From: a virus
Taxonomy: Duplodnaviria > Caudoviricetes
Length of the DNA stretch: 34,992 bases
Strand: one strand, 5' to 3'
IMG/VR virus record: IMGVR_UViG_3300032212_000097
Span: 1 to 34,992 of that record
Shown here: positions 4,780 to 8,577 of the stretch, one piece after another
How the letters are laid out: each line of letters opens with the position of its first letter
Numbering within the stretch: position 1 is the first letter of the stretch
Notes under the pieces: generated by a model
The model's input: the letters and a program-made list of their open reading frames with translations, nothing else
What the model was told of the DNA's origin: nothing
Databases searched by the model: none
Translations under genes and position numbers: made by a program

Positions 4780-5181
4780 TTAACTGTTGAATAGGTCGTT
4801 TTCTTTATTCAAGTCGCTCCACGGTACGCCGTTCACCGTTACGAGAATTTTTCTCCCGTCATCCCCTGGTGAACCCAAATAGATACCCTTATTTGGCTTT
4901 GGGCTTTGAAGGATGATCACGTCATTTCCAAAAACTTTCTTGAGGGTGTGCAGGTGGTGCGTGATGGTAAATTCTCGATGAAAGCTGTTGCACATTGTCC
5001 ACTCGTTTTTGTCCGCGTTGTATCGGCCGTGTTTTACAAGACCTAAGACTTGGTGCGTTTCCATGCCTGCCTTAGCAAGTTTGTTCCAATGATCGCCTTT
5101 GAGCTTAACCATGAAATAACTACCGTTTTGCAGAATTTCTCTGTCTTTGGCGTCTACAATTTTTTTTACTTCTCCGGTCAC
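4780..5181 (-). CDS. Hypothetical protein
   Basis: Probable GTG start at 5181 with AGGAGG RBS, overlapping the initiator stop (GTGA). Confidence 0.65.
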   Translation of the reverse strand: MTGEVKKIVDAKDREILQNGSYFMVKLKGDHWNKLAKAGMETHQVLGLVKHGRYNADKNEWTMCNSFHREFTITHHLHTLKKVFGNDVIILQSPKPNKGIYLGSPGDDGRKILVTVNGVPWSDLNKENDLFNS

Positions 5182-5918
5182 TTTTTTTCCTCCTTTTCTT
5201 CGAATAAATGCACTGGGAAATCCTCTACGTCTGCAATTTCTGAATTGCTGTATTGATCGTTCCAATGTTGGCCATGTAACCATGTTGATGGCATTTTCCA
5301 TGGCCTCCAATCTTCTTTGTGGGTTTTGTATCGGACTAATCCCGCAAGAATAATTTCTTGCGATACCTCCTCACGTGCGTTCTGATATTTTTCTTTAGCT
5401 GTTTTTTTTCCTTCTTTTCGGGGGTATGCTTTCCAAAAGGCTTCAAAGTCTTCTGAATAATCTTTTTTAGATTTAGAACCTTTATCTTTCTTTTTATTCT
5501 TTAAGTTCTTTTCTTTCTTTATCTTTGTCCGAAGCGGTGTCTGGGTGCTGTCTGCCTGCTGTCCTAAGTCCTGTCTGTTTGCTGTCTGGGTGCTGTCTGG
5601 ATTGTCCTGATATTCCGAGTAATTACAGATAGTTATAAGATTTTGACCTGTCCTAACCTCTGTCTGGATCATGTCCCATTTTTTGAAGTGTTTTAGAATT
5701 GTTTCCATTTTACCTGTCTTGATTCCTATCGCCTTCGCCATAAAACGAATGGAATGGGAGAATTGGCCACGCTCGATGCGCACCGGATTTCCGTTGATCG
5801 CAATGGTTTTTGCTTCAATTTCGGCATTCTCGATCATCCATAGCCATGCAATGCGTTCATCATTGTTTCTGAACACGGGGCTTTTCTGCCATCCTCTGTG
5901 TGTTTTAAACCAGCTCAC
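5178..5918 (-). CDS. Replication initiator (lambda O-like)
   Basis: N-terminal wHTH-like region, repetitive linker, C-terminal FEAFWKAYPRKEGKKTA...PSTWL..QHW. Confidence 0.85.
   Translation of the reverse strand: MSWFKTHRGWQKSPVFRNNDERIAWLWMIENAEIEAKTIAINGNPVRIERGQFSHSIRFMAKAIGIKTGKMETILKHFKKWDMIQTEVRTGQNLITICNYSEYQDNPDSTQTANRQDLGQQADSTQTPLRTKIKKEKNLKNKKKDKGSKSKKDYSEDFEAFWKAYPRKEGKKTAKEKYQNAREEVSQEIILAGLVRYKTHKEDWRPWKMPSTWLHGQHWNDQYSNSEIADVEDFPVHLFEEKEEKK
5526..5608. repeat. Replication origin iterons inside the initiator gene
   Basis: TGTCTG/TGTCC units about 11 bp apart; TGTCTGGGTGCTGTCTG at 5538 and 5583; AT-rich tract at about 5460-5525. Confidence 0.7.
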
Positions 5919-7021
5919 TTCAAACTCTCCTGTAATTCCGTTATGCGCTTTTGCGCTTTTGCTTCGCTCTCATATGCCCCGCCTTTGTAAGCTCTGTTAA
6001 AAATCCTGTGTGTCAGCACAGGAGATACAGTGTTTCCCATTTGTTTATATGCTTGAGTATCAGATAAGTGGTTTACCCAGTTGTCTGGAAAACCATGTAA
6101 ACGGCAACATTCAATTGGCGTTAAACGCCTTATATACTGACCGTCATAAACGCCGTGTCTATCCTGTGTAGTTAGTGTGAAACTTATATCTTTTTTGAAA
6201 CGTGGTCCGTTCTGGCGTTTTTCTTTTCTATCTGGTGTAAGCACCCCCATAACACACGGTTGACCACTACCGTCTTCTCTAGCTCTTGCAGGTATTGTTG
6301 GGCAATCGCCATTTGACGTTGCTCTAAATCCCTTTCCGTCGTTGTGAGTGCGTAGCGTGCCCGCAATAAGGGTCATGCTTGAGTGTAATCCCCCGCTGTT
6401 TCCTCCGGCTGTGAGGCAATTAACTGCGGTTTGCTTTGTCCTTTTAAAAGACCTTTCAGTTTCTCTTCCGATAGGAAATACTTTTGGTCTGGTTCTGCCT
6501 CTAAGATGTCCCACAAAGTAAATTCGCTCTCTATTTTGGGGGAGAAACCATCTAGTATTAAGCAATTGCCATTGGCAGTCATAAAGCCCAAGGTCGGCGA
6601 TTGTTCGCAATACTGTCGTAAAGTCTCGTCCGGGTTCTTCCTTTGGACTACTGAAAAGACCTTTGACGTTTTCAAAGATAAAAGTTTCGGGTTTGAGCTC
6701 CCGCACAAGTCTAATTGCTTCAAAGAAGAGAGATGATCTACTGCCTCCCAATCCTTTCCCGTCACCAGCAACTGAAACATCTTGGCAAGGGAATCCAAAA
6801 GTGATGAGGTTGATTTTTTCACCATTGAGTTTTCCTCGAACAGGTTGAATTGATCTAATGTCATTTAAAGCCTCACTGTTTTTAAAATGTCGTTCATATG
6901 TTTTGTTTGCATTCTTGTCTATATCGCTGTGCGCCTCATATCCAATCGATACACCTGCAAGGTCTAGCCCGTATCGAAAGCCACCACATCCAGAGAATAA
7001 ATCAAGATAATTAATGGTCAT
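5915..7021 (-). CDS. DNA (cytosine-5) methyltransferase
   Basis: LFSGCGG (I), GFPCQD (IV), ENVKG (VI), QNRERIY (VIII), RRLTPIECCRLHGFP (IX), YKQMGNTV (X). ATG at 7021 overlaps the upstream stop (ATGA). Confidence 0.95.
   Translation of the reverse strand: MTINYLDLFSGCGGFRYGLDLAGVSIGYEAHSDIDKNANKTYERHFKNSEALNDIRSIQPVRGKLNGEKINLITFGFPCQDVSVAGDGKGLGGSRSSLFFEAIRLVRELKPETFIFENVKGLFSSPKEEPGRDFTTVLRTIADLGLYDCQWQLLNTRWFLPQNRERIYFVGHLRGRTRPKVFPIGRETERSFKRTKQTAVNCLTAGGNSGGLHSSMTLIAGTLRTHNDGKGFRATSNGDCPTIPARAREDGSGQPCVMGVLTPDRKEKRQNGPRFKKDISFTLTTQDRHGVYDGQYIRRLTPIECCRLHGFPDNWVNHLSDTQAYKQMGNTVSPVLTHRIFNRAYKGGAYESEAKAQKRITELQESLK
6373..6864 (-). CDS. Nested +1-frame ORF resembling the M.EcoHK31I beta-type MTase subunit
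   Basis: 163 aa; GTGAGG RBS 6 nt before ATG; contains TLWDILEAEPDQKYFLSEEKLKGLL, a C5-MTase-type segment missing from the main frame. Confidence 0.7.
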   Translation of the reverse strand: MTLDQFNLFEENSMVKKSTSSLLDSLAKMFQLLVTGKDWEAVDHLSSLKQLDLCGSSNPKLLSLKTSKVFSVVQRKNPDETLRQYCEQSPTLGFMTANGNCLILDGFSPKIESEFTLWDILEAEPDQKYFLSEEKLKGLLKGQSKPQLIASQPEETAGDYTQA

Positions 7022-7575
7022 TTGTAGATCCTGTCTAAAACTGTTCCGTTGTGTTGCCCTTTTTCCCATACAAACCAAGCGTGCGCGGTAGGGGTTCCAG
7101 CTTTGTCTTTGTTCTCTTCATGTAGGTCATATCGCCAGCATGTGGCGCGTTGACCGCACAGATAAATGCGTTGTGGCGGATGCTTGTCCCAGAAGTCTTG
7201 ACGCCCTTTGCTTTCAAACCATGCGAAGCGCTGAAAACAGACAATCTTTTTCGCTCCGAGCTCTATAGATTTCTCGACAAATTCAACAGCCTTGGAAAAT
7301 GGCGGGTTCATAAAGACGCTTGTGTTTCTGAATGGAAATGCGTCCATATCTAAAAAATCTTTCAGGCGTGTACCAAAGAACCCCCAATCATGAATGTCGT
7401 ATGGAATAGGGCTGTACCCTGCTTTTCTAGCGGCGGCAGTCATTACACCTGTTCCGCAACAGGGATCCACAATGTGTTGTGTAAGGGTTTCTTTTTCGAG
7501 AATGCGATCAATGGCCCATTGTGGCGTCACATAGTGTTCAAATTCGATCGCTTTATCTTTCAATTCTGCGCTCAT
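7018..7575 (-). CDS. DNA amino (N6-adenine/N4-cytosine) methyltransferase
   Basis: YVTP.W, VDPCCGTG SAM-binding motif, catalytic NPPF, C-terminal AWFVW. Confidence 0.88.
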   Translation of the reverse strand: MSAELKDKAIEFEHYVTPQWAIDRILEKETLTQHIVDPCCGTGVMTAAARKAGYSPIPYDIHDWGFFGTRLKDFLDMDAFPFRNTSVFMNPPFSKAVEFVEKSIELGAKKIVCFQRFAWFESKGRQDFWDKHPPQRIYLCGQRATCWRYDLHEENKDKAGTPTAHAWFVWEKGQHNGTVLDRIYK

Positions 7576-8079: not shown

Positions 8080-8577
8080 TTATGCTGCCTCCGCGTCCGC
8101 TTCGTTGACACTGTCTGCCAATTCTTCTTCGTCTTCGTCAAAGAGGTCTTGCTGTGCTCGTGCACCATTTACAAATGCCTCAGCCTCTTCTCGGATTGCT
8201 TGCAGTAATTCCAATGTGTTTTGGTCAAATACTGCATCGTTCTGGCCTTCTGAGCCTTCCCACATTAACGGGGTGCTCATATTGAAGGGGCTAGAACAGT
8301 GAGAGAGTTTTTTCTGCGCTGAAATAACGGCTCCCATGCCTTTTGTTTCATGGTCACGGAAAGACACGCCGGATACGATAACCGTATCAAGATATTTTGC
8401 AGGTAAACTCACAACAGATTGCAAGTGCCTGGTCAAAGCGGCCATAGAATCTGTGAATTTCTGGCTTCGGGTGTCTTCCGATTTTAGAAACGTATTTTGT
8501 GTTGTTTTGACGTTGGGATTATCGTTATAAACGATTTCCGTTTCGTCTCCTTTGATTTTTACTTTGATAATATCCAT
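8080..8577 (-). CDS. Conserved-type phage hypothetical protein
   Basis: 165 aa ORF with AGGAG RBS and an acidic tail (...AFVNGARAQQDLF). Confidence 0.8.
   Translation of the reverse strand: MDIIKVKIKGDETEIVYNDNPNVKTTQNTFLKSEDTRSQKFTDSMAALTRHLQSVVSLPAKYLDTVIVSGVSFRDHETKGMGAVISAQKKLSHCSSPFNMSTPLMWEGSEGQNDAVFDQNTLELLQAIREEAEAFVNGARAQQDLFDEDEEELADSVNEADAEAA

Follow-up and report, generated by a model that had tools for sequence, protein, structure and literature searches.

The cytosine-C5 methyltransferase gene of this uncultured temperate phage almost certainly contains a second, real gene of 163 codons, which is read on the same strand in the +1 frame and is maintained by selection. The product of this nested frame, here called beta, likely binds the product of the main frame, alpha, as a second subunit and would thereby supply in trans the segment that single-chain enzymes carry past motif VIII. 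A sequence-only reading of the same DNA had already taken the locus for an orphan two-chain methyltransferase, and the two-chain view gains support from nested homologues, from the similarity of beta to the beta chain of phage MM1 and from a modelled complex. Since nested alpha/beta layouts were published decades ago, the overprinting itself is not a novelty.

The window, i.e. the whole stretch of 34,992 nt that was analysed, represents a temperate P22-like phage with integrase, CI, RecET and Hc3 head closure. The features of the locus are listed in Table 1. Alpha belongs to the C5 cytosine DNA methyltransferases by its motifs I, IV (PC), VI (ENV), VIII (QxRxR), IX and X and by a HhaI-like fold, M.HhaI being nearest when the predicted alpha structure was compared with solved structures. 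The start of alpha is taken as the ATG at 7021; the program-made list of open reading frames begins alpha at a TTG at 7078. Stop and start codons overlap by 4 nt at both ends of the gene (7018-7021 and 5915-5918), which suggests translational coupling with the two neighbors. No restriction-enzyme family was found among the longer ORFs scanned, several of which had no family match.

Table 1. Features of the methyltransferase locus (positions are those of the window)
Feature	Position	Strand	Evidence or remark
Amino-type (N6/N4-like) DNA methyltransferase, upstream; stop overlaps the alpha ATG	7018..7575	minus	phrog_799, E 3.7e-42
Alpha chain, C5 cytosine methyltransferase, 368 aa, motifs I-X	5915..7021	minus	PF00145, E 1.5e-64; TIGR00675
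Shine-Dalgarno-like GTGAGG, 6 nt before the beta ATG	6871..6876	minus	sequence
Beta chain, nested +1-frame gene, 163 aa, ATG start	6373..6864	minus	phrog_16143, E 1.4e-13; MM1 orf14, 39%
Beta residues 5-9, QFNLF, clamp-binding-motif-like	6838..6852	minus	outside the predicted alpha interface
Beta residues 91-97, TLGFMTA, predicted contact with alpha 147-153, lowest expected error	6574..6594	minus	complex model
Beta residues 109-132, PKIESEFTLWDILEAEPDQKYFLS, post-motif-VIII segment	6469..6540	minus	segment profile; M.SPR has the segment in-frame
Variable-region module A of alpha, CLTAGGNSGGLHSSM	6365..6445	minus	in L068 nearly all of the 51-aa variable region
Variable-region module B of alpha, GTLRTHNDGKGFR...PTIPARARED	6248..6370	minus	comparison of the variable regions of relatives
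Variable-region module C of alpha, KRQNGPRF...FTLTTQDRHG	6140..6253	minus	M.SPR and kin
Motif IX of alpha, RRLTPIECCRLHGF, alpha 298-311, retained in the main frame	6089..6130	minus	sequence
Phage replication initiator, downstream; start overlaps the alpha stop	5178..5918	minus	phrog_270, E 4.8e-24

The sequence-only reading had described a 163-codon +1-frame ORF wholly within the methyltransferase gene and on its strand, overlapping motifs IV-VIII and preceded at 6 nt by GTGAGG. All of this is present; the strand, which that reading had not given, is the minus strand, GTGAGG lies at 6876-6871, and the ORF extends over alpha codons 53-216, from motif III through motif VIII and into the first putative recognition module. 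Counted from the ATG at 7021, the beta ATG lies 157 nt inside alpha (+1), with an in-frame TAA immediately 5' of it, and in the nearest relative, L066, GCGAGG stands at a comparable place. A Shine-Dalgarno-like site precedes the nested ATG in just 12 of 65 nested representatives. A +1 methionine occurs in the same window of 45 of the 58 single-chain controls as well; the start codon alone therefore proves nothing, and it was rejected as evidence. The nested product contains TLWDILEAEPDQKYFLSEEKLKGLL and, on inspection of its sequence, no motif IX. Searched against Pfam and NCBIfam beta gave no match, and its profile gave a single chance match (E 1.4) among solved structures.

When alpha was recoded 5000 times with synonymous codons at the codon usage of the phage itself, the longest open +1 run had a median of 63 and a maximum of 157 codons, and none of the 5000 recodings reached 163. 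Conservation of the open frame and suppressed synonymous variation had been proposed as checks in homologues, stops in close homologues being what would speak against the nested gene. A search with alpha only delivered 64 viral loci, of which 52 were parsable; 45 of these are nested, 43 being free of stops over motifs IV-VIII and two having a single one, so the frame is kept open in most of them, and the other seven have 8-13 stops in the +1 frame. All 186 loci together, 167 of them parsed, were fetched with main-frame queries, 11 of them by the alpha search of genome contigs; over motifs IV-VIII there is no +1 stop in 61, one in two and two or more in 104, a split that gives no estimate of prevalence because one of the queries was deliberately a single-chain enzyme, serving as control. 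Synonymous variation is suppressed as had been anticipated: fourfold-site entropy in 28 alpha-selected nested sequences is 0.85 bits in the overlap versus 1.75 bits before motif III (p 3e-5), whereas it is flat in 43 single-chain control sequences over the same regions (1.54 vs 1.54). Over all 56 nested sequences the values are 0.73 and 1.72 bits, and entropy rises again over motifs IX and X. Wobble positions are constrained inside the overlap only.

At E up to 0.001 a profile of the nested chain finds 3003 clusters (50% identity), and at E up to 1e-10 it finds 1310; most phage and plasmid records among the matches listed name just the main gene under the match. On a tree of 47 rows made by a quick method, the nested label needs 4 changes versus 15.6 when shuffled, but P1 dmt forms a long branch there, so the tree does not settle the number of nesting origins.

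The segment at stake is an L.D(I/V)L stretch, which in single-chain enzymes stands in-frame shortly past motif VIII in 52 of 58 representatives and was not seen in six. The sequence-only reading had recognized it as 'L.DILE...KY.LS' in the nested product and had found it lacking in the main frame. A profile built solely from the in-frame segments of the single-chain enzymes (52 of the 58 representatives) agrees, with 13.4 bits for the nested product of this phage and -5.2 bits for its main frame. Scores of at least 10 bits are reached by 52 of 65 nested chains, the other 13 lying below, and by none of the 65 corresponding main frames. Profile scores thus show a complementary distribution, the segment belonging to the main frame where the enzyme is a single chain and to beta where a nested gene exists. 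It is among the most conserved stretches of beta in the nested-chain alignment, and the codons of its LWDILE overlap alpha codons 169-174, which encode the motif VIII strand.

A modelled complex, likewise proposed as a check, was computed from alpha 1-344 and beta 1-146 and scored 0.81, the best of 3 controls scoring 0.00. This mark is attained by 116 of 157 solved complexes and by 2 of 215 mismatched pairs, a calibration that holds just roughly because our own alignments served as input. The runs share at least 71% of contacts, with a partner pLDDT of at least 61. Beta 91-97 is near-invariant in alignment A3; in the predicted complex, beta residues from about 109 to 132 pack against motif IX and residues 178-186 of alpha. 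The pass may stem from resemblance to solved single-chain enzymes. In the predicted structure the catalytic core of alpha folds confidently without beta; the model is therefore no proof that beta is required.

In the Streptococcus pneumoniae phage MM1 (DQ113772.1) orf13 and orf14 are annotated 'C5 methyltransferase alpha/beta subunit'. There, too, beta occupies the +1 frame of alpha, reaching from motif III beyond motif VIII, alpha retains motifs IX and X, and beta reads LSDILE..RYFLS and is without motif IX. Identity is 33% between the alpha chains (E 2e-49) and 39% between the beta chains (E 1e-17), so the product described in the sequence-only reading does resemble an annotated beta subunit. 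The recognition modules of MM1 are unlike those found here, and the sources differ as well, a pneumococcal phage versus an uncultured P22-like one. A second ORF inside alpha over motifs III-VIII, homology of both chains to MM1 and a motif IX in alpha alone place the locus with the MM1/Tn5252 type. Total overlap of the two genes in S. thermophilus 5093-group phages, with MM1 and Tn5252 cited, is described in the available part of PMC5601072; this phage layout was already in print there and went unmentioned in the sequence-only reading. The available part of PMC8637289 counts more than 30 orphan methyltransferases of the MM1 or VO1 class, and its table S10 may hold more MM1-class enzymes.

The precedent named originally was M.EcoHK31I (YGGCCR), whose beta is described as lying wholly in another frame inside alpha (PMC2836561, PMC3404938, available parts). 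According to the available part of PMC2836561, silent removal of the beta starts abolished activity in vivo and beta in trans restored it. The accessible text of both papers places motif IX in beta, with alpha devoid of it, and states that the N-terminus of beta tolerates shortening (PMC2836561, PMC3404938). By this published description, the precedent stands for a beta nested in a different frame of alpha and fails for the exact type, motif IX being in beta there and in alpha here, which is the MM1/Tn5252 arrangement instead. By analogy, the enzyme here would work like M.EcoHK31I, yet it belongs to the MM1 type. Neither M.EcoHK31I nor M.EaeI came up among phage and plasmid sequences.

P1 dmt (L267:8714-9202) has an open +1 frame over dmt codons 100-262, which ends LSQVLE..RYFLS and is unannotated in the record.

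The N-terminus of beta carries a clamp-like motif that the sequence-only reading had missed. For bacterial beta-clamp binding the consensus QL(S/D)LF is given in the available part of PMC9690074, which also offers DNMT1 on PCNA for comparison as a clamp client. As in clamp clients, a Q-x-x-L-F peptide stands near a chain end; here, however, QFNLF is N-terminal, sits on an overprinted chain and differs from QL(S/D)LF in its second and third residues. The pattern Q[LMFIPVG]x[LMI][FLMIW], set after the data had been seen, covers QFNLF here, QLNLF in L066, QMTLF at the start of MM1 beta and, elsewhere, QLSIF and QLQMF. At 90% dereplication it is present in 15 of 29 alpha-selected nested representatives (40 of all 65, hence missing from 25) and in none of the 58 single-chain +1 frames; at 70% the counts are 5/12, 10/21 and 0/22. 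Synonymous recoding with the frame kept open leads to an expectation of 0.7 for the 15 of 29 and 2.4 for the 40 of 65. A further count of 48/132 was set aside, as the search profile itself contained the motif. Alpha has Gly/Lys-Ser-Val/Ile at motif III in 35 nested and 17 single-chain sequences; the serine codon there is TCA, read as Gln in the +1 frame, in 34 of the former and 4 of the latter. The Leu and Phe of the motif come partly free from alpha Ile and Val codons. Relative to motif III the register is 2 in 31 of 38 cases, 3 in one, 5 in five including the phage here, and 7 in MM1; eight of the 31 register-2 cases had been mis-anchored by the pattern and were reassigned by distance, and most register-2 cases are kin. 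The motif is missing from six long chromosomal fusions (L224, L226, L228, L230, L232, L233), and none was found at motif III of P1 dmt.

By these comparisons the clamp-like motif is selected, and QFNLF, a partial match to QL(S/D)LF near a chain end, would make beta a candidate clamp client. We tentatively suggest that QFNLF, free at the N-terminus, tethers the enzyme to the sliding clamp of the host, so that DNA would be methylated as it is copied. The literature searched contained no paper on clamp-bound phage methylases, nor one on an N-terminal clamp motif in beta. Among 18 ORFs of the window checked, the sole other clamp-like motif is a QQDLF near the acidic C-terminus of the protein encoded at 8080-8577 (minus strand, phrog_9403).

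Beta could be real and merely accessory, tuning or localizing an alpha that is active alone, for instance as a clamp adaptor or an inhibitor. Such a role would suit an alpha that has all ten motifs and a confidently folded core, as well as a clamp-like motif under selection and two loci, L042 (2802) and L044 (2862), in each of which a single internal stop interrupts the nested frame while alpha is intact. It fits poorly, however, with a segment that most single-chain enzymes keep in-frame and that no nested main frame retains, that is highly conserved in beta and part of the predicted interface, and that persists in L226, L228 and L230, where the clamp motif is lacking. On balance we consider an accessory beta unlikely.

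Still less is to be said for two readings that dispense with a separate beta. A programmed +1 frameshift joining both frames in one chain is very improbable: alpha-N/beta-C fusions do occur in protein databases (e.g., P0001) and a clear Shine-Dalgarno sequence is missing in most relatives, but since LWDILE is encoded over the motif VIII codons themselves, a forward shift cannot unite motif VIII with the segment, an earlier shift forfeits motifs VI and VIII and terminates at the beta stop ahead of motifs IX and X, and contigs containing indel errors would be expected to yield such fusions. That the open frame is an untranslated by-product of codon bias or of an RNA or DNA element is hardly credible. 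Some beta residues are indeed imposed by alpha, whose Ile or Val codons yield Phe or Leu in +1; against this stand the outcome of the recodings, the many stops in the same frame of single-chain relatives and the fact that the constraint tracks amino-acid motifs homologous to the in-frame segment of single-chain enzymes. The preferred reading is that of a translated beta subunit completing alpha.

Motifs IX and X stand in the main frame together with the TL-like segments CLTAG, GTLRT, PTIPAR and FTLTT, all as the sequence-only reading had listed them. Its guess that the enzyme is multispecific gained support from the modular variable region. Relatives combine three modules, A, B and C, in various ways: 109 variable regions show eight presence patterns, with A almost alone in L068 and C almost alone in L100 and L134. 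Frequencies of module B and of the module C tail are biased, as both had been used as search patterns. Between module C and a stretch beside motif IX in M.SPR, M.phi3T, MtbP, M.rho11s and M.H2 identity is 59-64%; modules A and B gave no match among characterized enzymes. Tandem recognition domains are described for the Bacillus phage C5 methyltransferases M.SPR, M.phi3T, M.rho11s and M.H2 and for MtbP of SPbeta (PMC8936443, available part). These enzymes resemble alpha in their mosaic variable region, whereas M.SPR, a single chain, carries LKDLLEEYVDEKYYL in-frame and its +1 frame is interrupted by 7 stops; of the traits of the SPR/phi3T group the locus thus has the tandem exchangeable modules and not the single chain. 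We infer that modules A, B and C act as recognition domains, and three shuffled modules, one of them common to M.SPR, suggest multispecificity. Two nested-type alphas, L100 and L134, have a variable region of 68 aa, and motif X of L100 reads GRAV for GNAV.

GGCC is the site common to SPR, phi3T, rho11s and H2, and by analogy module C may read GGCC. In the window GGCC occurs at 0.88 of expectation, which is uninformative. Depleted sites are GGNCC (13 observed vs 67 expected), GANTC (35 vs 88), GCWGC (15 vs 54) and CCWGG (13 vs 44); depletion was rejected as a means of identifying the target, as restriction avoidance fits equally well. GANTC is the alphaproteobacterial CcrM site, and its depletion may be a weak hint at the host.

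In the proposed mechanism beta would be translated from its own ATG and would bind alpha, giving in trans what single-chain enzymes have in-frame, and the resulting heterodimer would be the active orphan methylase. Modules A, B and C would define up to three target sites, and methylation there would guard the phage genome against restriction by the host; the free QFNLF would hook the enzyme to the host sliding clamp, with DNA being methylated during copying. It is conceivable, and put forward here with reserve, that the overprinted gene in this way makes a replisome-riding multispecific methylase, in which the nested chain both completes the fold and carries the host-clamp hook, marking DNA at the fork.

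The clamp hook is the part that would be new. If the motif binds the clamp, anti-restriction methylation of phages would be coupled to replication via an overprinted adaptor, a counterpart in bacterial viruses of DNMT1 on PCNA that would lie, mostly unannotated, in about 3000 protein clusters. That the part moved to the second chain is the linker past motif VIII and not motif IX offers a structural reading of MM1-type beta chains. Codon optimization or silent recoding of such a gene would destroy the second chain, and the resulting construct might be judged inactive.

Some relatives depart from the common layout. In L224, L226, L228, L230, L232 and L233 alpha is fused to long C-terminal extensions reaching 407-1214 aa past motif VIII; all but L233 are labelled as Bacteroidota taxa, and an HNHPS motif in some of the extensions is one we take to be RadC-like. 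The nested frame of the long-fusion loci is open, with the segment retained in those inspected. L227 and L231, which have alphas of ordinary length, possess a clamp-like motif. At L069:1577-2800, L084:1748-2900 and L245:995-2260 alpha ends 36-89 residues past motif VIII and motifs IX and X follow in a separate downstream ORF or in a different frame; the three loci may represent additional split arrangements, decayed genes or errors of assembly. Several nested-chain proteins from the database continue into motif IX.
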